This document shows, piece by piece, positions 2,386-30,031 of a DNA stretch of 64,000 nucleotides (the first letter of the stretch is position 1; each line of letters begins with the position of its first letter). A program made the position numbers and the translations under genes. The stretch lies in NCBI RefSeq assembly GCF_009931435.1, contig NZ_CP043414.1, one strand, 5' to 3'. The stretch is from Escherichia coli. Its GTDB lineage: Bacteria; Pseudomonadota; Gammaproteobacteria; Enterobacterales; Enterobacteriaceae. The notes beneath the pieces are model-generated. The model ran no database searches, was not told where the DNA came from, and was given only the letters and a program-made list of their open reading frames with translations.

Positions 2386-3708
2386 TTATAACCGATGAAA
2401 TTTTGCCAGTAAGGCCAGTGAAAATGTTGTCAGCAAAATGGTAATGACTGCGTAAATATACACTCCTGACCATTCCCAACTGTTTTTCACCATAATAACT
2501 GGAAGCCCTGCCATTGCCGCGCCTAAATAACTAAACAAGCCCCTGAATCCAGTAATGGAACCTGCCGCATCTTTATGCGTAACATCAAGACACCCGACAG
2601 CGAATAACATATGCGGTCCATACAATGCAAACCCCATGATTGTAAACAGAATAGCCGTTAATGTGTAGGAGACGTCCTGCACCAGCGGTACGAGAACGAT
2701 GCAAATACATAAAGCGATGGCAAAGATTAATCCTGTCATCCAGCGGTTACTTTTAAACATGAAATCGGACAAGTACCCCGCCAGTAATCCCCCAGCAAGT
2801 CCACCTGCTTCAAACCAGGATATAATGGAGTTCGCTTTAATCAGGCTCCAGTTATGAACCTGAGAATAATAAATTTGTGGCCAGTCATTGAGGATGGTGC
2901 GTGCAATATAGACCGACATATCCCCGAGGATAATGAGCCAAACTAATGGGTTGGTAAGAATATATTTAACGAATATTTGCCAAAAACTGAGATCAACCGG
3001 ACTTGCTTTAACTTGTGCAAGTTCTGTCGGGTCGTTGCGCCACTTACCGACGTTAGGCAAACCGAGCGTGCCGGGACGATCTTTTATCGTAAACAAGGCA
3101 ACAATCCCCATAATCAGTGAGATTACACCCGGAACATAAAAGCCCATCTTCCAGCTGCCACTAAAAGCAATAGCAAAGCTTGTCAGGAGAGGCGCAAGAC
3201 TACCGCCAATATTATGCGCAGCTTCAACAACTGCCCACCAGCGTCCGCGTTCATTTTTCGAGAACCACGAGGCCATAATTTTTGCCATTGGCGGAAAACT
3301 GGTACCCTGGAGAATAGCATTAAGGCTATACAGGATATAGAACGCAGCAACGCTGTCTGAAAAACCGAAAAGAATGTTAACAATACCGACGCCAATAAGT
3401 ACGGGGCCAGTCATCGCTCTTGGGTTAATTTTATCGACTAACATGCCACCTACAAACTTCATGGAGCCATAAAGAATGTAAAAGACCGACGACATGATAG
3501 CGAAATCTTGTGCGGTTAATGACGTATCCGTTAACATCGCTGGCATGGCCGCAGAGAAATTCTTGCGGGTTAAGTAAAATACGGCATAAGAGATAAATAC
3601 AGAGGTGATGATTTCAATGCGAAATTTTTTATAAGTATGATCAACTTCTTCTTTTGGTTTGACCACCGGTTGGTCGGCCTGGCTGAAAATAAATTTTTTC
3701 AAACTCAT
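2386..3708 (-). CDS. MFS organophosphate:phosphate antiporter (OPA family; GlpT/UhpT/PgtP-like)
   Basis: 440-aa ORF aligning by eye with GlpT along its length (YLTRKNF, WFSKNERG, GPHMLF-type motifs); RBS aagga 7 nt upstream; AT-rich codon usage. Confidence 0.85.
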   Translation of the reverse strand: MSLKKFIFSQADQPVVKPKEEVDHTYKKFRIEIITSVFISYAVFYLTRKNFSAAMPAMLTDTSLTAQDFAIMSSVFYILYGSMKFVGGMLVDKINPRAMTGPVLIGVGIVNILFGFSDSVAAFYILYSLNAILQGTSFPPMAKIMASWFSKNERGRWWAVVEAAHNIGGSLAPLLTSFAIAFSGSWKMGFYVPGVISLIMGIVALFTIKDRPGTLGLPNVGKWRNDPTELAQVKASPVDLSFWQIFVKYILTNPLVWLIILGDMSVYIARTILNDWPQIYYSQVHNWSLIKANSIISWFEAGGLAGGLLAGYLSDFMFKSNRWMTGLIFAIALCICIVLVPLVQDVSYTLTAILFTIMGFALYGPHMLFAVGCLDVTHKDAAGSITGFRGLFSYLGAAMAGLPVIMVKNSWEWSGVYIYAVITILLTTFSLALLAKFHRL

Positions 3709-3740
3709 TGTGAGTTTCCTTTTCTGTGAACCTTATGGCG

Positions 3741-4628
3741 CTATAATTTTTCTTCTATAAAAAAGAGAAGCGACTCGAAACCATTAAAATTAATCTGGTC
3801 AGCAATTTTTTCCCGGGTTTTAGGTTTTGCTTTCCATGCCACGCCATTTCCGGCATGCAAAAGCATAGGAATATCATTGGCACCATCTCCACAGGCAATG
3901 ATGTTTTCACGGCAGATAGCTAACTCTGTCGCTAAATTTATCAGGGTTTGCTTTTTCTTTTCTGCATTCATAATAGGTAAGGTAATTGTATCAGTTAACA
4001 GATCTTCCTTAATGCGCACAGAGTTAGAAAATGCAAAATCAAGTTGATATTTTTCCTTCAATCGCTCAGTAAAAATATCCAAACCTCCAGATATAATTGC
4101 CGTCTTGAATCCTTTTTCTTTTAGTATGGGAAGAATAGTTTCAAGACCTGGTGAAAGAGTCATCTGTTCACAAACTTTATGCAATATATCTTTATGCGTT
4201 CCTTTAAGCATGGCAATTCGCCGGGTAAAACTGGCATCAAAATCGATTTTCCCTTCCATCGCTTCACGGGTCAGTGCGGTGATTTTTTCAGAGATGCCGA
4301 GTCTACGGGCTATTTCATCGACACCTTCTTCTTCAACAAAGGTGGAATCCATATCAAAGGCAATAATTCCCTGATCCGGTAAGACCTTGGGTTTACGGAA
4401 AAAATCAAACTGATGATTATCAGCACGGTGACGTAAACCAGCATAAAAAGCAGGGTTGGTAACATCATCTGGTAATACTAGCTTTAGATACTCTTTATTT
4501 ATTTGCCCACTGTAATTCGTTGTTAGCGAAAACACCGAGGGGGAAATCTTTAAATGTTGCAGATAATCTTCCAGACATTTTTGGGTGATGTCGATGCCTG
4601 TTGGCGACAAGAAATAAATAATCGTCAT
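3741..4628 (-). CDS. HAD-superfamily phosphatase, phosphoserine phosphatase (SerB)-like
   Basis: 295-aa ORF with HAD motif I FDMDST and motif IV GDGANDIPM; RBS aaggag upstream. Confidence 0.8.
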   Translation of the reverse strand: MTIIYFLSPTGIDITQKCLEDYLQHLKISPSVFSLTTNYSGQINKEYLKLVLPDDVTNPAFYAGLRHRADNHQFDFFRKPKVLPDQGIIAFDMDSTFVEEEGVDEIARRLGISEKITALTREAMEGKIDFDASFTRRIAMLKGTHKDILHKVCEQMTLSPGLETILPILKEKGFKTAIISGGLDIFTERLKEKYQLDFAFSNSVRIKEDLLTDTITLPIMNAEKKKQTLINLATELAICRENIIACGDGANDIPMLLHAGNGVAWKAKPKTREKIADQINFNGFESLLFFIEEKL

Positions 4629-4722
4629 TTACCGCTCCTTTTTATCTGCAATGATTATAATAAGATTTCATAGAGGCTGATGTATCTGACAATCACAGTT
4701 GTGAATGTTAAATAAAAGATAA

Positions 4723-4785
4723 AAAAGTACTTTTTTTGATACTTTGAAATAATAAGATACTAAAAGTACCATTTTTGATATCTTT
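4723..4785. promoter_or_regulatory. Two ~24-bp direct repeats (AAAAGTACnnTTTTTGATAyyTT) in the divergent promoter region of the island
   Basis: Repeat 1 at 4723-4745, repeat 2 at 4762-4785, 16 bp apart, between the divergently oriented phosphatase/transporter and dehydratase/XRE genes. Confidence 0.35.
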
Positions 4786-4838
4786 ACCAGGATATAAAGA
4801 ATAACTATTTTTCAACGTTGAAGGAATCATTTACAAAT

Positions 4839-6191
4839 ATGGAAAGCTGCATAGATATATTCAAGATAGTTATTGGTCCATCCAGTTCCCGCACAGTCGG
4901 GCCAATGCGTGCGGCTTATAATTTTGTGTCACAATTGAAACAGCAAGAAATGTTACCTTTGTTGCGGAAAATTGATGTCGAACTTTATGGTGCGCTGTCA
5001 TTAAGCCGCAAGTGCCATAATGTTGATGTGGCGATTTATCTCGGTTTGCAAGGACACTTACCTGACAGCGTTGACATTCGCATGGAAATGTCCGCCATCA
5101 GGCGTGCAGAAACTGAGGCGACGCTGGAAGTTATGCCTGGTGTCAACGTCAGTGTATCCATTCTTTCTAATCTACAAGCGCATCCGGGGCACCCTTATGC
5201 GATGACATTTCGTGCCAGAGATGACTGGTTTACACTTTATGAAGAAACCTGGTTTTCTATCGGCGACGGTCAAGTGCTAAAAGCAGGAGAGGCGATTATT
5301 CCTCCATCAGTCACTCCACATCCTTTTGAATTCCAGAACGCAAACGAATTATTAAAACTTTGTCAGCAAAACGGATTATCTGTCGCGGCATTAATGATGA
5401 AAAACGAACTGCACTGCCAGACAGCAGCTTTTTTGCATGACGATCTTCATAAAAAATGGGAAGTAATGAAGGATGCGGTTTATCGCGGGATGCATACAGA
5501 AGGATTACTTCCAGGTCCGTTTCAGGTTAACCGTCGTGCCTGTGCTTTATATAAATCGTTGCAGTCAAAGGGGTTTTCCAATGACTTCCTGACTACGCTC
5601 AATTGGGTCAATACTTTTGCCATTGCGGTGAGCGAAGAAAATGCTGCGGGTGGACGTGTCGTGACAGCACCCACCAACGGCGCGAGCGGTATTATCCCGG
5701 CTGTACTGTGCTGGTATGATAAATTCATTCACGAGCTTGATACATACTCCGTTACCCGCTTTTTACTGACCGCTGGTGCCATCGCCATTCTGTTCAAAAA
5801 AAATGCCTCTATTCTGGGTTCTGAAGTTGGATGTCAGGGGGAAATAGGTGTTGCCAGTTCAATGGCGGCAGCAGGATTAGCAGAACTTATGGGCGGGTCA
5901 GTGGCTCAGGTACTTAGCGCGGCAGAAATTGCGATGGAGCATCATTTAGGTTTGACCTGTGATCCAGTTGGCGGGCAGGTACAAATTCCTTGTATTGAAC
6001 GAAATGCTATTTCAGCTGTGAAAGCTATCAACGCAACGACGATGGCGTTGAGTCGCATAAGCGAGCCGTGCATTACGCTGGATGAGATAATTTCCGCGAT
6101 GTATGAAATCGGAAAGGATATGAGCGCTAAATACCGTGAAACTTATCATGGCTGTCTGAGCAAATTGCAGCCAAGAAAAAAGGATGCGTAA
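4839..6191 (+). CDS. Fe-S L-serine dehydratase (SdaA/SdaB/TdcG family)
   Basis: N-terminal [17 protein letters not shown] and internal [31 protein letters not shown] match SdaA signature blocks. ATG at 4839 chosen over the track's TTG at 4818 because of the aagga RBS. Confidence 0.85.
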
Positions 6192-6192
6192 G

Positions 6193-6582
6193 ATGAAATA
6201 TAATACGATGAATAACAACGAAATTATTTTATCACTGTGCGCTCGCATTAAAGAAACGCGTATCTCATTATCATTGACCCAACAGCAGTTAGCCGAGCGT
6301 GCATTGGTGGGCATAGCAACGGTCAAGCGGATTGAAAAGGGGGGAAGTTTAAATCTTGATACTCTCATTTCTCTTCTGCGCGCGCTGAATAAATTGCAAA
6401 ATCTCGATGCCATATTGTTCGAAGCAGAAATGCGTAATTTCAACGAAAATAGTTCCAGCGGCGAAGGGGCAGGGCGACTACAGGTACGCCAGCAACTGAC
6501 AGATTTAAACCAGAAGTCTCCAGCCCCGCACGCAGATGACCATAATTTTAGTACGGCGCTGGAAAATACCCTCTGCTGGTGA
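6193..6582 (+). CDS. XRE-family helix-turn-helix transcriptional regulator
   Basis: 130-aa ORF with HTH block LSLTQQQLAERALVGIATVKRIEKG; aagga RBS 8 nt upstream of ATG at 6193; last gene of the island. Confidence 0.7.
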   Translation: MKYNTMNNNEIILSLCARIKETRISLSLTQQQLAERALVGIATVKRIEKGGSLNLDTLISLLRALNKLQNLDAILFEAEMRNFNENSSSGEGAGRLQVRQQLTDLNQKSPAPHADDHNFSTALENTLCW

Positions 6583-19575: not shown

Positions 19576-20702
<1,127 letters not shown>

Positions 20703-20796
20703 TTAATTCGTAAAACGTGCTACCGATCACATTAAGAATTCTCAGCATAGTTGAATTACAGGGAAGTAACATCGGGCGAGTGCCCAGTTCAGCACA

Positions 20797-21705
20797 CTAA
20801 TTCTGCTGTAAAAAGTGCAGAAACTGACTTAAAGCATAAGAAGGCGTTTCGTTATTACGCCAAAACACACCGACGCTGCCTTTCTGTTCAATCTTTGGCA
20901 GGTTGAGGATCACCAGTTGCCCCTGGCTGGCATAACGTTGCGCCAGGCGTAATGACAAAATAGAGATCATATTGCTGCTTTGTAACAGGTTGGTACTGAC
21001 GTTCATCGACGCCGACTCAATCGTGTTTTCTGGCAGCATCACGCCGTGGTCTACCAGCGCATTATCAATGCTGATGCGGATGGGGGTACCTGTCGGCCAG
21101 ACTATCCACCGCCAGTTAGCAAGATCATTCCAGCTGAGGGTGGCGTATTTCGCCAGTGGATGCTCAGGACGGGCGACAAAGCATACCGGCTCGGTGTAGA
21201 GCACGCGATAATTCAGCGGCAACTGCAACGCGCGACCGCCAATTCGCCCAACCACCACATCGACAGAACCTGCCAACAGATCTTGCAGCAATGGGGTCAT
21301 CACCTTCTCTTCGATATTCAGGTGTAGAGTTGGCATCTCCTTGAGCAAATGCAAAATCGCCTGGGATACGCAGTCAGTGGCGACGGGAGAACAGCCAATT
21401 TTCAGACTGCCGACCAGTCCACCTTGTTTAAAGCGAGCCAGTTCATATTGCGATCTTTCCATGTCATTGATTAACCGTTGGGCATGTTGCAATAACAATT
21501 TGCCGCCTTCGGTCGGACGAAGCCCTTTGCTGTGCCGCTCAAAAAGTGTGAGTCCGATCTCATCTTCCAGTTGTGACAACCATTTCGAAAGCGCGGGTTG
21601 GGTGATATTCATCATCCGTGCGACATGGGTTAGATTGCCCTGTTCACCCAGCGCCACCAGCATTTGCAGGTGATGTAGTTTTAGTTTTTGCGCCCAGTTC
21701 GCCAT
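20797..21705 (-). CDS. LysR-type transcriptional regulator of the gentisate cluster (MhbR-like)
   Basis: N-terminal HTH (LTHVARMMNITQPALSKWLSQLE); strong RBS tggagg 9 nt upstream of the ATG at 21705; divergent from the transporter gene. Confidence 0.85.
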   Translation of the reverse strand: MANWAQKLKLHHLQMLVALGEQGNLTHVARMMNITQPALSKWLSQLEDEIGLTLFERHSKGLRPTEGGKLLLQHAQRLINDMERSQYELARFKQGGLVGSLKIGCSPVATDCVSQAILHLLKEMPTLHLNIEEKVMTPLLQDLLAGSVDVVVGRIGGRALQLPLNYRVLYTEPVCFVARPEHPLAKYATLSWNDLANWRWIVWPTGTPIRISIDNALVDHGVMLPENTIESASMNVSTNLLQSSNMISILSLRLAQRYASQGQLVILNLPKIEQKGSVGVFWRNNETPSYALSQFLHFLQQN

Positions 21706-21831
21706 TTGCCATAACCTCCAGGTTATCTCTCTGCCCGAAATGCCATTGTACATCTCATCTCTTTAATCACATTATCGCAACATATACAAAACAAAAGAAA
21801 CATCTACCTTACCTGCACTGAGGCATTTACT

Positions 21832-23190
21832 ATGACTCAACGACGTGATTTACAAGCACTTATCGATGCCGCTCCGGTCGGCAAGATGCAGTGGCGCGTT
21901 ATCATCTGCTGTTTTCTGGTGGTAATGCTCGATGGTTTTGACACCGCGGCTATCGGCTTTATCGCCCCTGATATTCGCACTCACTGGCAGCTCACCGCAG
22001 GCGATCTCGCCCCGCTTTTTGGTGCGGGTCTGCTGGGATTAACCGCAGGCGCACTGCTTTGTGGCCCGTTGTCCGATCGCTTTGGTCGCAAGCGGGTGAT
22101 TGAGCTGTGCGTCTTTTTGTTTGGCGCGTTAAGCCTCGCCTCGGCTTTCTCACCGGATCTGCAAACGCTGGTCTTCCTGCGCTTTCTCACCGGCCTGGGT
22201 CTGGGCGGCGCGATGCCGAACACCATCACCATGACCTCGGAGTATCTGCCTGCCCGCCGCCGCGGCGCGCTGGTGACGCTGATGTTTTGCGGCTTTACGC
22301 TGGGTTCGGCGTTTGGCGGGATTGTCAGTGCGCAGCTGGTGCCGGTGATTGGCTGGCACGGCATTCTGGTGTTGGGGGGCGTGTTACCGCTGATGCTGTT
22401 TGTCGCACTGCTGGTAGTTCTGCCGGAATCGCCACGCTGGCAGGTGCGCCGCCAGCTACCGCAGGCGGTGATTGCGAAAACCGTCAGCGCCATCACCCGC
22501 GAGCGTTATGTCGATACCCACTTTTATCTCATTGAATCAGCCTCCGTTACAAAAGGCAGCATTCGTCAACTGTTTATGGGACGTCAGTTACCCATTACGT
22601 TGATGTTGTGGGTAGTGTTCTTTATGAGCCTGCTGATTATTTACCTGCTCTCAAGCTGGATGCCAACGCTGTTGAACCATCGCGGCATAGACCTGCAACA
22701 CGCGTCCTGGGTCACCGCCGCGTTCCAGATTGGCGGTACGTTGGGCGCGCTGGCGCTGGGCGTGCTGATGGATAAGTTCAATCCTTTCCGCGTGCTGGCG
22801 CTGAGCTATGCCGTAGGCGCTGTATGCATCGTGATGATTGGCTTAAGCCAGGATGGATTATGGCTGATGGCGCTGGCGATTTTCGGCACCGGCATTGGCA
22901 TTAGCGGATCTCAGGTGGGGTTGAACGCGTTGACCGCAACGCTCTACCCAACGCAAAGCCGCGCCACGGGCGTGAGCTGGTCAAACGCCGTAGGCCGCTG
23001 CGGCGCGATTGTCGGCTCGCTTTCTGGCGGCCTGATGATGGCGATGAATTTCTCTTTTGACACCCTGTTTTTCATTATCGCTGTGCCCGCGGCGATCAGT
23101 GCGGTGATGTTAAGCCTGCTGATCACCGTGGTTCGCCAGTCGACCTCTGTCCCTGACTCACTGCCTCGCGCAGGCGTTGTGAACGAATAA
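21832..23190 (+). CDS. MFS aromatic acid:H+ symporter (3-hydroxybenzoate transporter MhbT-like)
   Basis: 452-aa ORF, 12 predicted transmembrane segments, MFS motif [11 protein letters not shown]. Confidence 0.85.
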
Positions 23191-23201
23191 GGAGCATCCT
23201 A

Positions 23202-24230
23202 ATGACTGATAACAATCAAAAAAGCCGCGAGCAATTTTATCAGCATATTTCCGGGCAAAACCTGACCCCGCTGTGGGAGTCACTGCACCACCTGGTGCCG
23301 AAAACGCCCAACGCTAACTGTGCGCCAGCGTACTGGAATTATCAGGAGATCCGCCCGCTGCTGCTGGAGAGCGGCAGCCTGATTGGCGCGAAAGAAGCTG
23401 TGCGTCGTGTGCTGGTACTGGAAAACCCGGCGCTGCGCGGGCAGTCTTCCATTACCGCGACTTTATATGCCGGTTTGCAACTGATCATGCCGGGCGAAGT
23501 GGCACCGAGTCATCGTCATAATCAGTCGGCGCTGCGTTTTATTGTTGAAGGCAAAGGGGCATTTACCGCCGTTGATGGCGAACGCACGCCAATGAATGAG
23601 GGCGATTTTATCCTGACCCCACAATGGCGCTGGCACGATCACGGTAACCCTGGCGACGAACCGGTTATCTGGCTCGATGGACTGGATCTGCCATTAGTGA
23701 ACACTCTGGGCTGCGGTTTTGCCGAAGATTACCCGAAAGAGCAACAACCGGTAACGCGTAAAGAGGGGGATTATCTGCCGCGTTATGCCGCCAATATGTT
23801 GCCGCTGCGCCATCAGACGGGTAACTCCTCACCGATCTTTAACTATCGTTATGACCGTAGCCGCGAAGTGCTGCACGATTTAACCCGCCTGGGCGATGCC
23901 GACGAGTGGGATGGCTACAAAATGCGCTATGTCAACCCGGTCACCGGCGGCTATCCGATGCCGTCGATGGGCGCCTTCCTGCAACTGCTACCGAAAGGGT
24001 TCGCCTCCCGCGTGGCGCGTACCACTGACAGCACTATCTACCATGTAGTGGAAGGTAGCGGACAAGTCACCATCGGCAATGAAATCTTCACCTTTAGTGC
24101 AAAAGATATCTTTGTGGTGCCGACCTGGCACGGCGTGTCATTCCAGACTACGCAAGATACCGTTTTATTCAGTTTTTCGGACAGACCGGTACAAGAAGCC
24201 CTGGGGCTGTTCCGCGAAGCGCGTTATTAA
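23202..24230 (+). CDS. Gentisate 1,2-dioxygenase (bicupin)
   Basis: 342-aa ORF; cupin His motifs ([10 protein letters not shown]...WRWHDHGN) match the recalled gentisate dioxygenase family. Confidence 0.85.
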
Positions 24231-24245
24231 TTTGGGAGAGAGAAA

Positions 24246-24947
24246 ATGACTCAATATGTATTCGAACCACAAGCGCCCGTTACCGTACCGGTTGTTGGCA
24301 GTGATGAACAATTCCCCGTGCGCCGCGTTTACTGCGTTGGGCGTAACTATGCCGCCCACGCCCGCGAAATGGGCTTTGATCCGGATCGTGAACCCCCCTT
24401 CTTCTTCTGCAAACCAGCAGATGCCGTTGTTCCGGTCGCCGCTGGCGAAACGCTGGCGCTGCCGTATCCGGCGCAGACCGATAACTATCATTACGAAATT
24501 GAACTGGTGGTGGCGATTGGTAAAAAGGGCAGCGATATCCCACTGGAAAAGGCCCATGAATATGTCTGGGGTTATGCCACAGGCCTTGATATGACGCGCC
24601 GGGACCGTCAAATGGAAATGCGTCAGATGGGCCGCCCGTGGGAAATCGGCAAAGCATTTGATCTCTCGGCCCCCATCGCACCGCTGCACAAAGCCAGCGA
24701 AACCGGCGGTATTGATAACGCACCAATCTGGTTACAGGTAAACGGTGAAGATCACCAGCGCAGCGATATTCGGCATTTGATCTGGTCGGTGAATGAAACC
24801 ATCAGCTACCTGTCAGGCTTCTTTGAGCTGCAACCGGGCGATCTGATCTTCACTGGTACGCCAGAAGGGGTGGGCCCGGTAGTGAAAGGTGATGTGATCA
24901 CGGGCAACGTCGAGGGCTTAACCCCTATCGCGGTGAAGATTGTCTGA
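24246..24947 (+). CDS. Fumarylpyruvate hydrolase (FAH family)
   Basis: 233-aa ORF with fumarylacetoacetate hydrolase-family blocks ([21 protein letters not shown]). Confidence 0.8.
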
Positions 24948-24955
24948 GGTGCATG

Positions 24956-25600
24956 ATGAAGCTGTACAGTTTTTTTAATAGTTCAGCATCGTACCGGGTA
25001 CGCATTGCGCTGGCGCTGAAAGGCATTAATTACCAGACCGAAGGGGTGAATATCCGTATTGGTCAGCAAAATGAACTGGCCTATCGGCGGATGAATCCTG
25101 TCGGGCTGGTGCCGACGCTGCTGACTGACGAGGGCGAGTCACTCGGTCAGTCGCTGGCGATTATTGACTGGCTGGATCGTCACTACCCGCAAGTTCCGCT
25201 GGTGCCGCAGGAAGAACCGGCCCGCAATAAGGTGCTGGAAATTGTCTATGCCATCGCCTGTGATATTCATCCATTGAATAACCTGCGCGTGCTGCGCTAC
25301 CTGACCGAAGAGCTGAATGTCAGTGAAGAAGAGAAAAAACGCTGGTATGCGCACTGGATCCAGCAAGGGTTAAGCGCGGTGGAACAGCTACTGCGCCAGA
25401 GCCAGTCGGGGCAATTTTGTGTGGGTGAGACGCCGACGCTGGCAGACTGCTGCCTTGTTCCGCAGTGGGCGAACGCGCTACGTATGAACTGCGATCTGAG
25501 TGGATATCCGCGCTGCAAAGCGGTGTACGACGCCTGCACACAACTGCCAGCGTTCATTGCCGCAGCGCCAGAAAATCAACAAGATAAAATTTCAGCCTGA
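24956..25600 (+). CDS. Maleylpyruvate isomerase (GST zeta / maleylacetoacetate isomerase family)
   Basis: N-terminus MKLYSFFNSSASYRVRIALALKGI typical of zeta-class GST; second ATG chosen for RBS spacing. Confidence 0.8.
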   Translation: MKLYSFFNSSASYRVRIALALKGINYQTEGVNIRIGQQNELAYRRMNPVGLVPTLLTDEGESLGQSLAIIDWLDRHYPQVPLVPQEEPARNKVLEIVYAIACDIHPLNNLRVLRYLTEELNVSEEEKKRWYAHWIQQGLSAVEQLLRQSQSGQFCVGETPTLADCCLVPQWANALRMNCDLSGYPRCKAVYDACTQLPAFIAAAPENQQDKISA

Positions 25601-25614
25601 CCAGGAGAACCATA

Positions 25615-26808
25615 ATGACTAAAGTGACACGCGCAGTAATTGTGGGAGGCGGGATCGGCGGTGCGGCAACTGCGCTGTCACTGGCCCGCCAGGGGATCAA
25701 AGTGGTGCTGCTGGAAAAGGCGCATGAGATCGGTGAGATTGGCGCAGGTATCCAGTTGGGGCCAAATGCGTTTTCGGCGTTGGATAGTCTTGGTGTTGGC
25801 GAAATCGCCCGCCAACGTGCAGTATTCACCGATCACATCACCATGATGGACGCGGTGAACGCCGAAGAAGTGGTGCGTATTGAAACCGGGCAGGCCTTTC
25901 GTGACCATTTCGGCGGCCCTTACGCGGTGATCCACCGCGTTGATATTCATGCCTCGGTGTGGGAAGCGGTACTGACGCATCCGAACGTGGAGTATCACAC
26001 CTCCACAAACGTCGTTGATATTCGCGAGACGCCGGACGATGTCACCGTTTTCGACGATCGAGGTAATAGCTGGAGCGGCGATATTTTGATTGGCTGTGAT
26101 GGCGTGAAGTCAGTGGTGCGCCAGAGCTTATTAGGCGATGCGCCGCGCGTCACCGGTCATGTGGTCTACCGTGCGGTTATCGATTGTGCGGATATGCCGG
26201 AAGATTTACGTATTAATGCGCCGGTATTGTGGGCGGGTCCGCACTGTCACCTGGTGCATTATCCTTTGCGCGGCGGCAAGCAGTATAACCTGGTGGTGAC
26301 ATTCCACAGTCGCCACCAGGAAGAGTGGGGCGTGAAGGATGGCAGTAAAGAGGAAGTGCTTTCCTATTTTGAAGGCATTCACCCGCGTCCTCGCCAGATG
26401 CTGGATAAACCGACGTCATGGCGACGCTGGTCAACGGCCGATCGTGAACCGGTAGGGAAATGGGGGACTAACCGCATTACGCTGGTGGGCGATGCGGCCC
26501 ATCCGGTGGCGCAGTATATGGCACAAGGTGCCTGTATGGCGCTGGAAGATGCAGTCACGCTGGGTAAGGCGCTGGCGCAGTGTGAGGGTGATGCGGCGCA
26601 AGCTTTTGCGCTGTATGAGTCGGTACGTATTCCGCGTACCGCGCGCATCGTCTGGTCGACCCGTGAAATGGGGCGGGTTTATCACGCCGCAGGGGTAGAA
26701 CGTCAGGTACGTAACCTGCTGTGGAAAGGGAAATCGCAGGCAGAGTTTTATCGCGGCATGGAGTGGCTGTACGGCTGGAAAGAAGATAACTGTCTGCAAC
26801 CACGCTGA
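25615..26808 (+). CDS. FAD-dependent aromatic monooxygenase (3-hydroxybenzoate 6-hydroxylase-like)
   Basis: N-terminal GGGIGG FAD-binding fold and GDAAHP motif; final gene of the gentisate cluster. Confidence 0.85.
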   Translation: MTKVTRAVIVGGGIGGAATALSLARQGIKVVLLEKAHEIGEIGAGIQLGPNAFSALDSLGVGEIARQRAVFTDHITMMDAVNAEEVVRIETGQAFRDHFGGPYAVIHRVDIHASVWEAVLTHPNVEYHTSTNVVDIRETPDDVTVFDDRGNSWSGDILIGCDGVKSVVRQSLLGDAPRVTGHVVYRAVIDCADMPEDLRINAPVLWAGPHCHLVHYPLRGGKQYNLVVTFHSRHQEEWGVKDGSKEEVLSYFEGIHPRPRQMLDKPTSWRRWSTADREPVGKWGTNRITLVGDAAHPVAQYMAQGACMALEDAVTLGKALAQCEGDAAQAFALYESVRIPRTARIVWSTREMGRVYHAAGVERQVRNLLWKGKSQAEFYRGMEWLYGWKEDNCLQPR

Positions 26809-26837
26809 GTACTTCTTACCCAATCAGGTGCACGGAC

Positions 26838-26880
26838 GGTCCCCTCGCCCCTTTGGGGAGAGGGTTAGGGTGAGGGGAAA
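26838..26880. repeat. GC-rich compound palindrome (cccctcgcccctttggggagagggttagggtgagggg), terminator-like
   Basis: Nested inverted repeats seen directly after the monooxygenase stop. Confidence 0.4.
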
Positions 26881-26967
26881 AATCTTGCCCGAATTAATCA
26901 GTAAGTCAGTTTGTCTGCAAACACCAGAGGCGCTAACATAGCGCCTCATTTTTTTGCGGGTGATGAT

Positions 26968-27915
26968 ATGCGTGTGTTACTGGCGCCGATGGAGGGTGTA
27001 CTCGACTCTCTGGTGCGTGAATTGCTGACCGAAGTTAACGACTACGATCTGTGCATCACCGAGTTTGTCCGCGTGGTGGATCAACTGCTGCCGGTAAAAG
27101 TTTTTCATCGCATTTGCCCGGAGCTACAAAACGCCAGCCGAACGCCATCCGGTACGCTGGTGCGCGTGCAATTGCTGGGTCAGTTCCCACAATGGCTGGC
27201 AGAGAACGCCGCCCGTGCGGTGGAGTTAGGTTCCTGGGGCGTGGATCTTAATTGCGGCTGTCCGTCGAAAACGGTTAACGGTAGCGGCGGCGGGGCGACA
27301 CTACTCAAAGATCCTGAACTCATCTACCAGGGTGCAAAAGCGATGCGTGAAGCTGTACCGGCGCATTTGCCCGTCAGTGTGAAAGTGCGCCTGGGCTGGG
27401 ACAGCGGTGAGAAGAAATTTGAAATCGCCGATGCGGTTCAACAGGCTGGCGCTACGGAGTTGGTGGTGCATGGGCGGACAAAAGAGCAGGGTTACCGCGC
27501 GGAGCATATTGACTGGCAGGCGATTGGCGAGATTCGCCAACGGCTGAATATTCCGGTGATTGCCAACGGTGAAATCTGGGACTGGCAGAGCGCGCAACAG
27601 TGTATGGCGATAAGCGGCTGTGACGCGGTGATGATTGGTCGCGGAGCGCTCAATATTCCCAATCTGAGCCGAGTGGTAAAATATAACGAACCGCGAATGC
27701 CGTGGCCGGAGGTGGTTGCTTTGCTACAAAAATATACCCGTCTGGAAAAGCAGGGCGATACCGGGTTATATCACGTTGCGCGGATTAAACAGTGGTTGAG
27801 TTATTTGCGTAAAGAATACGATGAAGCAACAGAATTATTTCAGCATGTTCGGGTGTTGAATAATTCCCCTGATATTGCAAGGGCTATTCAGGCAATTGAT
27901 ATCGAGAAACTCTAA
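26968..27915 (+). CDS. dusC: tRNA-dihydrouridine(16) synthase DusC
   Basis: N-terminus [33 protein letters not shown]; start trimmed from the track ORF. Confidence 0.9.
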
Positions 27916-28594: not shown

Positions 28595-30031
28595 ATGAAT
28601 CGTGATTCCTTTTACCCAGCCATCGCCTGTTTTCCTCTGTTACTGATGCTGGCCGGGTGTGCACCTATGCATGAAACCCGCCAGGCGTTAAGCCAGCAAA
28701 CACCCGCTGCGCAAGTTGACACCGCATTACCCACGGCGCTGAAAAATGGTTGGCCAGACAGCCAATGGTGGCTGGAGTATCACGATAATCAACTTACTTC
28801 ATTAATTAACAATGCACTGCAGAACGCACCGGATATGCAGGTGGCTGAACAGCGCATTCAGCTGGCTGAAACCCAGGCGAAGGCAGTTGCCACTCAGGAT
28901 GGCCCTCAGATCGATTTTTCTGCGGATATGGAGCGGCAAAAAATGTCGGCAGAAGGGCTAATGGGGCCGTTTGCTCTGAACGATCCTGCCGCAGGTACGA
29001 CCGGTCCGTGGTACACCAATGGTACTTTTGGCTTAACGGCGGGCTGGCATCTTGATATTTGGGGAAAGAATCGGGCGGAGGTTACTGCTCGCCTCGGTAC
29101 GGTTAAAGCACGGGCGGCGGAACGCGAGCAAACCCGCCAATTGCTGGCTGGCAGCGTAGCCCGCCTGTACTGGGAGTGGCAAACCCAGGCAGCGTTAAAC
29201 ACTGTTTTGCAGCAAATCGAAAAAGAGCAGAACACCATTATCGCGACCGATCGCCAGCTATATCAGAACGGGATTACTTCTTCAGTTGAAGGTGTGGAAA
29301 CCGATATTAATGCCAGCAAGACCCGGCAGCAGCTCAACGATGTCGTGGGAAAAATGAAAATTATTGAGGCACGGTTAAGCGCACTTACAAATCACCAGAC
29401 AAAGGCATTGAAGCTTAATCCGGTCGCGTTGCCGAAAGTGGCAAGCCAGCTTCCTGATGAACTGGGGTACTCCTTACTGGCCCGGCGGGCAGATTTGCAG
29501 GCGGCGCACTGGTACGTTGAGTCATCGCTAAGCACCATTGATGCGGCAAAAGCGGCATTTTATCCTGACATCAACCTGATGGCCTTCCTGCAACAGGATG
29601 CGTTGCACTTAAGCGATTTGTTCCGTCATTCCGCGCAGCAAATGGGCGTTACGGCAGGCCTGACGCTACCCATTTTCGATAGTGGTCGTCTTAACGCCAA
29701 CCTGGATATCGCGAAAGCCGAAAGCAACTTGTCGATCGCCAGCTACAACAAAGCGGTGGTTGAAGCGGTGAATGATGTGGCGCGGGCTGCCAGTCAGGTT
29801 CAGACATTGGCCGAGAAAAACCTGCATCAGGCGCAAATTGAACGCGATGCCTTACGTGTGGTAGGTCTTGCACAGGCGCGCTTTAACGCGGGCATCATTG
29901 CCGGTTCCCGCGTCAGCGAAGCCAGAATCCCGGCGCTGCGTGAGCGTGCCAATGGCCTGTTATTGCAAGGGCAGTTGCTGGATGCCTCCGTTCAACTAAC
30001 CGGGGCGCTGGGCGGGGGGTACAAACGTTGA
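28595..30031 (+). CDS. mdtQ: Outer membrane efflux lipoprotein, NodT/OprM family (MdtQ), apparently intact
   Basis: 478-aa frame from MNRDSFYPAIACFPLLLMLAGC (lipobox LAGC) with no internal stops. Confidence 0.85.
   Translation: MNRDSFYPAIACFPLLLMLAGCAPMHETRQALSQQTPAAQVDTALPTALKNGWPDSQWWLEYHDNQLTSLINNALQNAPDMQVAEQRIQLAETQAKAVATQDGPQIDFSADMERQKMSAEGLMGPFALNDPAAGTTGPWYTNGTFGLTAGWHLDIWGKNRAEVTARLGTVKARAAEREQTRQLLAGSVARLYWEWQTQAALNTVLQQIEKEQNTIIATDRQLYQNGITSSVEGVETDINASKTRQQLNDVVGKMKIIEARLSALTNHQTKALKLNPVALPKVASQLPDELGYSLLARRADLQAAHWYVESSLSTIDAAKAAFYPDINLMAFLQQDALHLSDLFRHSAQQMGVTAGLTLPIFDSGRLNANLDIAKAESNLSIASYNKAVVEAVNDVARAASQVQTLAEKNLHQAQIERDALRVVGLAQARFNAGIIAGSRVSEARIPALRERANGLLLQGQLLDASVQLTGALGGGYKR

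Follow-up and report, generated by a model that had tools for sequence, protein, structure and literature searches.

Among the closest described relatives of the genes treated here are those of the mhbRTDHIM cluster of Klebsiella 'pneumoniae' M5a1, whose product MhbR is a LysR-type activator (PMC3572157, citing Jones & Cooper 1990; Robson et al. 1996; Lin et al. 2010). The same paper cites reports that Klebsiella M5a1 and Salmonella grow on 3-hydroxybenzoate or gentisate, and a gentisate pathway has been described in Salmonella enterica (Goetz & Harmuth 1992, cited in PMC3572157). The gentisate dioxygenase of Escherichia coli O157:H7 is, as summarized in PMC4585797 from Adams et al. 2006, biochemically active and holds its iron through His104, His106, and His145. 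The present analysis concerns a cluster of the same kind in a 64-kb stretch of E. coli DNA (contig NZ_CP043414.1), which we call the window and whose numbering is used for all coordinates, and specifically the interval 20797-26808 between the genes yohJ and dusC. The genes themselves, the pathway, the regulator, and the structure of the O157:H7 dioxygenase are already published, and the gene names are present in RefSeq. A first-pass annotation of the window had considered it a catabolic island inserted between yohJ and dusC. The comparisons described below, which rest on sequence and gene order, make it very probable that mhbRTDHIM is ancestral at this chromosomal site in Enterobacteriaceae, that it was inherited vertically in this strain, and that the K-12-type allele arose by deletion. 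Such a reading corrects the direction of the event, from acquisition to differential loss of an ancestral operon, and is relevant wherever horizontal transfer is inferred from presence and absence; beyond correct annotation, its importance is small.

The evidence that carries this reading comes, in the first place, from the position of the cluster in other species. One genome per species was surveyed with the dioxygenase as probe, and on each locus the genes of the cluster and those of the E. coli flanks were then located. The order cdd-yohK-yohJ / mhbR-mhbTDHIM / dusC proved to be syntenic on both sides in 27 species loci and on one side in 5 further loci, in which the other side falls at a contig end or is broken in the assembly. 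The syntenic loci, with dusC(-mdtQ) on the right, include those of E69 (a divergent species representative labelled 'E. coli'), several Citrobacter, the Klebsiella oxytoca group, Raoultella, Kluyvera, Pseudocitrobacter, Pluralibacter, Pseudenterobacter, Shimwellia, Entomohabitans, and others. In Escherichia albertii the left side matches up to the contig end, in S. enterica the same arrangement extends over 19 genes, and Klebsiella aerogenes also has it. The content and order of the six genes that define an mhbRTDHIM cluster are those of the window, and the identical order recurs in at least 40 enterobacterial loci. The mean protein identity of the cluster is correlated with that of the flanks with a Pearson r of 0.97 over 29 loci, and the nucleotide identities of both move together.

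These results bear directly on the view that the cluster came into this lineage by horizontal transfer, as a catabolic island that inserted between yohJ and dusC. That view can draw on the presence of the cluster in some E. coli only, on a guanine-plus-cytosine (GC) content slightly above that of the immediate flanks, and on its mobility elsewhere, where copies flanked by insertion sequences (ISs) are found in genomic islands of Shiga toxin-producing E. coli (STEC) and on plasmids. It is effectively refuted by synteny, the position of the cluster being shared by 12 or more genera, Salmonella and Klebsiella among them. Further points against it are that the divergence of the cluster matches that of the flanks, that integrase, transposase, tRNA gene, and direct repeat are all lacking, and that K-12 has kept the 3' spacer and the terminator of the operon. 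To revive it, independent gains at the same site would have to be assumed in each of the syntenic species, which is implausible, and we leave it next to no probability. The term 'inserted' used in the first-pass annotation therefore has to be given up, in view of the common site, the divergence that follows the flanks, and the deletion scar of K-12. The same annotation had correctly seen that no integrase or transposase flanks the cluster: mobility genes, a tRNA gene or att site, and a direct repeat or target duplication were sought at the junctions, in the window, and in an annotated near-identical genome, and none was found. This absence is what would be expected if the locus is ancestral and was lost from most E. 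coli. Compositional anomaly was also considered as a sign of transfer and was ruled out, the GC content of the island (0.549) lying within the range spanned by 6.2-kb windows of the same sequence (0.455-0.560).

The second line of evidence is the structure of the junctions. A terminator scan and folding identified an intrinsic terminator of the mhb operon on the + strand at 26927-26955, composed of the hairpin GAGGCGCTAACATAGCGCCTC and a T-run, and 13 species have it conserved just 3' of their mhbM stop codon; K-12 has it too. Within ~25 bp of the end of mhbM, the loci of E69, Citrobacter, Pseudocitrobacter, Pluralibacter, and others show the hairpin GAGGCGCTA(A/C)CATAGCGCCTC with its T-run, and dusC follows. 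In the K-12 derivative EPI300, yohJ directly adjoins dusC, the arrangement that the first-pass annotation had given for K-12. Exact breakpoint comparison showed that the segment differing from the K-12 allele extends over 6,189 bp (20739-26927), in place of which K-12 has 126 bp. The segment first delimited from open reading frame to open reading frame (20797-26808) is real, and the span that differs from K-12 is slightly wider. The 72 bp upstream of yohJ (20667-20738) are common to the window and K-12, where the initial ~72-86 bp of the spacer between yohJ and mhbR are preserved; at the other end, the last ~19 bp of its 126 bp match the spacer 3' of mhbM in other species, and the terminator hairpin is kept together with the preceding TTTAATCCGCTGACC found in E69, with no same-strand upstream gene remaining for it to terminate. 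Because K-12 keeps sequence from 3' of mhbM with the terminator, and part of the left spacer, its allele is best read as a deletion. A loss of ~6 kb that began in the yohJ-mhbR spacer and ended at the stop codon of mhbM would yield the K-12-type allele. Within the remainder, ~100 bp of filler (positions 2664-2770 of the EPI300 locus, L002) contain the hairpin AGAGGGATTGC-N8-GCAATCCCTCT and are conserved, once per genome, in 4,918 genomes of E. coli. Local alignment of this filler with the cluster of five species gave no score above those of the shuffle controls, a blastn comparison with the window returned chance 10-12-mers only, and scanning the K-12 intergenic region against Rfam (E <= 1) gave no credible hit.

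When the query included the flanks, the cluster was found at the yohJ-dusC site in 504 of 5,426 complete E. coli genomes (~9%), yohJ and dusC being neighbours in the others, and the K-12-type empty allele with its ~126-bp filler was found as a single copy in 4,918 (~91%), so that occupied and empty alleles together account for 5,422 of the 5,426. An island-only query detected 611-614 E. coli genomes, the excess over 504 representing copies elsewhere. The cluster is thus accessory in E. coli and absent from strains including K-12, as the first-pass annotation had stated. Presence/absence polymorphism within a species is one mark of an island, and deletion explains it equally well. In NCTC9100, only a 228-bp remnant of mhbM is left, cut by IS30. 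A literature search for links of gentisate with an O-island or a phylogroup in E. coli found nothing relevant.

The genome nearest to the window is strain 2013C-4282 (98.8-99.0% identity), and the O157:H7 alleles reach ~94.8%. A history somewhat less improbable than simple insertion is that the ancestor of E. coli lost the cluster and that it later returned to this site when homologous recombination in the conserved flanks brought it in, the donor being a different Escherichia lineage or some close relative. The low frequency of occupied sites noted above would fit such a course, as would the ~5% difference between the island alleles of this strain and O157:H7, a little above that of the flanks, and the fact that, among the genomes listed, only 2 carry an island with 98% identity or more to the window's. 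However, identity among the island alleles of E. coli (93-99%) is higher than their identity to those of E. albertii or the divergent strain E69 (88-94%). The flanks of this strain are equally diverged from K-12 and from O157, giving no sign of a sharply bounded imported tract, and the empty allele is itself diverse (95-100% identity), which indicates that both alleles are old. Loss followed by regain therefore seems unlikely. Vertical inheritance of an ancestral locus, which we prefer, has nevertheless some observations to its disadvantage. The ~100 bp of K-12 filler have no detectable similarity to the cluster, implying that the deletion was not a simple excision. Within E. coli the island is slightly more diverged than its flanks, identity to an O157-like strain being 92.5-97% for the island genes as against 95.7-98% for the flanks, which leaves room for some recombinational exchange. 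Against the functional side of the account stands that MhbT, MhbH, and MhbR score under the curated cut-offs of their NCBIfam models.

Copies outside the native site were found in two settings. In STEC chromosomes of serotypes O145 (locus L003) and O103:H2 (locus L087), the cluster lies in an IS-rich genomic island beside IS66, IS3, IS630, and ISEc60, and on plasmids of 47-242 kb (e.g., locus L086, p1RM9088) it lies between IS1 and IS1414, several of these plasmids coming from isolates from produce (lettuce and sprouts), beef, and cattle. The operon copies outside the native site are 93-97% identical, and those in chromosomal genomic islands include the E. coli-type spacer sequence, for which reason they were probably captured from the native E. 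coli locus. 3-Hydroxybenzoate and gentisate are breakdown products of plant phenolics, gentisate also of salicylate, and their availability in the gut is possible. It may tentatively be asked whether niche-specific positive selection acts on the operon in cattle- and plant-associated E. coli, with retention at the ancestral site in O157:H7 and IS-mediated capture of an E. coli-type copy elsewhere, although we regard this idea as doubtful. If it were true, 3-hydroxybenzoate/gentisate catabolism would be an adaptive trait of STEC and environmental strains and not a neutral relic.

The survey also returned records of other kinds. In Serratia (L032, L034, L036, and L042) and Trabulsiella (L007, L021, and L045), the proteins of the cluster share 88-90% identity with the window's, as near as those of Citrobacter, and the cluster is without yohJ and dusC flanks. 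The Serratia cluster seems closer than would be expected for core genes, and this may suggest horizontal transfer out of Enterobacteriaceae. A 9-kb contig of a metagenome-assembled genome named 'Collinsella sp.' (L049, JAIJJM010000061.1) carries mhbR, mhbT, and mhbM with 98-99% protein identity to E. coli, while mhbH and mhbI are missing and mhbD is truncated by an internal operon deletion; it is almost certainly an E. coli contig misbinned into an actinobacterial genome. Two records labelled as plasmids, L089 (NZ_CP148876.1, Salmonella Infantis, 499 kb) and L090 (LR134127.1, Klebsiella aerogenes, 278 kb), have core chromosomal neighbourhoods, in which preA/preT or mglA/mglC are followed by sanA, cdd, yohK, yohJ ... 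dusC, and these are probably chromosome fragments or mis-assemblies entered as plasmids.

The gene content of the locus agrees with the first-pass annotation, in which a LysR gene had been described as divergent from an operon for a transporter, a dioxygenase, a hydrolase, an isomerase, and a monooxygenase: six intact open reading frames were found between yohJ and dusC at the positions it had given. On the left, beyond cdd and yohK (the latter and yohJ recognized by NF007983 and NF002494, respectively), the flank ends with the core gene yohJ of the CidA/LrgA family (20268-20666, - strand; 218 bits with NF002494, and so annotated by RefSeq in a 99%-identical genome). Next comes mhbR (20797-21705, - strand; PF00126 and PF03466), encoding the LysR-type regulator and divergent from the operon. 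Its longest open reading frame reaches 21753, and the start at 21705 is favoured by RefSeq and by cross-species alignment. On the + strand follow mhbT (21832-23190), for a major facilitator superfamily (MFS) transporter that falls in the family of aromatic acid/H+ symporters (AAHS); mhbD, or gtdA (23202-24230; TIGR02272), for the bicupin, Fe(II)-using gentisate 1,2-dioxygenase; mhbH (24246-24947; PF01557), for an enzyme of the fumarylacetoacetate hydrolase (FAH) family; mhbI, or maiA (24956-25600; TIGR01262), for a zeta-class glutathione S-transferase (GST); and mhbM (25615-26808; NF006021), for 3-hydroxybenzoate 6-monooxygenase, a class A flavoprotein. The gaps between these five genes are 8-15 bp, and mhbTDHIM is predicted to be one operon ending at the terminator at 26927-26955. 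The right flank starts with the core gene dusC for tRNA dihydrouridine(16) synthase (26965-27915, + strand; 696 bits with NF007838, RefSeq).

The functional assignments differ in the evidence available for each protein. The mhbD product passes the NCBIfam equivalog TIGR02272 with 599 bits against a cut-off of 442, is ~98% identical to the E. coli O157:H7 gentisate dioxygenase in PDB entry 2D40, and carries His104, His106, and His145, that is, a complete three-histidine Fe(II) site. The mhbM product reaches 757 bits with NF006021 (cut-off 459), as expected of a 3-hydroxybenzoate 6-hydroxylase, and its closest structure is the enzyme of Rhodococcus jostii (3HB6H; 4BJY/4BJZ), with 270 bits; the variant entries 4BK1-4BK3 of that enzyme appear as separate sequences. 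Tyr105, His213, and Gln301 of the R. jostii protein, residues that reportedly have a role in that enzyme, are conserved here as Tyr103, His212, and Gln300. The mhbI product matches the zeta-GST equivalog TIGR01262, titled maleylacetoacetate isomerase, with 309 bits (cut-off 171), and scores 165 bits with the maleylpyruvate isomerase NagL (2V6K and 2JL4) and 233 bits with 6JWK. Sequence cannot separate specificity for maleylpyruvate from that for maleylacetoacetate; the operon context prefers the former, and MhbI is therefore taken as a putative glutathione-dependent maleylpyruvate isomerase. The mhbH product has a clear FAH fold (PF01557) and falls below the curated equivalog cut-off; its nearest solved structures are 6J5Y (381 bits) and 4MAQ, a 'putative fumarylpyruvate hydrolase', and the place of its gene in the operon is kept in all syntenic loci. 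From this context, MhbH is taken as a putative fumarylpyruvate hydrolase. All four enzymes have near relatives among solved structures. The mhbT product belongs to the AAHS family, with 379 bits for TIGR00895 and 424 bits for the PcaK model NF053517, both under cut-off, and a 99%-identical orthologue bears the RefSeq name MhbT; it is a putative 3-hydroxybenzoate transporter.

Taken together, these assignments give good support to a route from 3-hydroxybenzoate through gentisate, maleylpyruvate, and fumarylpyruvate to fumarate and pyruvate, and the complete route proposed in the first-pass annotation is upheld at this level in both gene content and pathway logic. MhbT would import 3-hydroxybenzoate; MhbM, a monooxygenase using flavin adenine dinucleotide and NADH, would hydroxylate it at C6 to give gentisate; the Fe(II) bicupin dioxygenase MhbD would open the ring to form maleylpyruvate, which MhbI would convert into fumarylpyruvate with the aid of glutathione; and hydrolysis by MhbH would release fumarate and pyruvate. 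The strain, unlike K-12, is thus predicted to be able to use 3-hydroxybenzoate and gentisate. One might suppose instead that the cluster is a decaying or cryptic remnant without function in this strain, since most E. coli do without it and partial deletions are known, such as the NCTC9100 remnant and the misbinned contig that has lost mhbH and mhbI. That supposition is very improbable, because the six open reading frames are of full length relative to the models, and no damage is seen in the catalytic residues, the Shine-Dalgarno sequence, the box for the regulator, or the terminator.

The shared intergenic region between mhbR and mhbT was aligned from 21 sequences of ~15 genera, and it combines the divergent arrangement of a LysR-type regulator (HTH_1 and LysR_substrate domains) with a conserved candidate operator. 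The latter is the inverted repeat ATAACCTCCAGGTTAT at 21711-21726, of the form ATAACC-N4-GGTTAT, whose half-sites are invariant or nearly so in all 21 sequences and which occurs once in the whole window. Operators of PcaQ-type LysR regulators have been described as ATAAC-N5-GTTAT for Burkholderiales and, with the centre at -65.5, as ATAACC...TAT for Sinorhizobium meliloti (PMC3572157, PMC5002191). MhbR, which shares 86% protein identity with its K. michiganensis orthologue, has the PcaQ model TIGR02424 as its top NCBIfam match (186 bits, under cut-off), in agreement with the PcaQ-operator form of the box, and ATAACCTCCAGGTTAT is a candidate MhbR site on these grounds. Cross-species alignment revealed a further invariant block, CCATTGTAC, at 21743-21751. 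On its + strand, TTGTAC stands about where the -35 element of mhbT would fall with the box centred near -65, and on its - strand, TACAAT is a plausible -10 element for mhbR. If TACAAT is indeed the mhbR -10 element, the box lies downstream of the mhbR promoter, in the classical layout of LysR autorepression. No sigma-70 promoter was recognized between mhbR and mhbT by a consensus scan, as is usual for activator-dependent promoters, so the promoter proposal is one drawn from conservation. The Shine-Dalgarno sequence of mhbT, GAGGCA at 21820-21825 on the + strand, is conserved across species. MhbR would probably activate the operon and repress mhbR through the box at 21711-21726.

Between mhbM and the terminator, the window has a spacer of 118 bp (26809-26926), which is common to the window and O157-type E. 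coli and stands in for the ~24-bp spacer of E69, Citrobacter, and relatives. Its distinguishing feature is a GC-rich palindromic repeat, CCCTCGCCCCTTTGGGGAGAGGGTTAGGGTGAGGGG, with the core at 26842-26877, which we take to resemble a repetitive extragenic palindromic (REP) or boxC element. The repeat is present in one copy in the window and in exact copies on other E. coli replicons (H40), and it is not found in the matching spacer of E69 and Citrobacter. The spacer containing it folds stably (z = -3.1), and an Rfam scan of the window between 17 and 31 kb at the gathering threshold detected no credible family.

Two observations concern other parts of the window. The gene mdtQ (28595-30031) is an intact open reading frame here and in strain 2013C-4282, whereas it is annotated as a frameshifted pseudogene in the K-12 derivative. 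The interval between cirA and yeiG (2386-6582) holds four genes, for an MFS transporter, a SerB-like phosphoserine phosphatase, an L-serine ammonia-lyase, and a helix-turn-helix protein. Presumably cirA and yeiG are adjacent in K-12, and this block is probably another accessory or differentially lost segment.

The locus was compared with the described systems, including the Klebsiella and Salmonella clusters that the first-pass annotation had proposed for the purpose. The M5a1 cluster and the window agree in their six genes, in the order and orientation of these, and in the divergent LysR regulator. K. michiganensis served as a proxy for the M5a1 sequence, M5a1 being, as we assume, a member of the K. 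michiganensis/K. oxytoca group. In this K. oxytoca-group locus (L025), the proteins share 85-91% identity with those of the window and the flanks are likewise yohJ and dusC; in contrast to a cluster of the M5a1 type, the window has the additional repeat-containing spacer between mhbM and the terminator. S. enterica has the identical gene set in the neighbourhood preA-preT-yeiS-sanA-cdd-yohK-yohJ / cluster / dusC-yohP-mdtQ-yohF, which is also that of the window, and its cluster, taken from the record labelled as a 499-kb plasmid that looks chromosomal, has ~80% nucleotide identity to the window's. The cluster of E. coli O157:H7 EDL933 is located at the same yohJ-dusC site with the same repeat-containing right spacer and encodes a dioxygenase of ~98% identity with the same iron ligands, while the ~5% nucleotide divergence of the O157:H7 island from that of the window points to a different E. 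coli lineage. The nag genes of Ralstonia sp. U2 and the gentisate cluster of Pseudomonas aeruginosa share the chemistry, with a dioxygenase, a glutathione-dependent isomerase (NagL, 2V6K), and an FAH-family hydrolase, but their sequences are distant and their gene order and regulator are different. The gentisate pathway of strain U2 is fed from naphthalene and salicylate, and not, as predicted for the mhb operon of the window, from 3-hydroxybenzoate.

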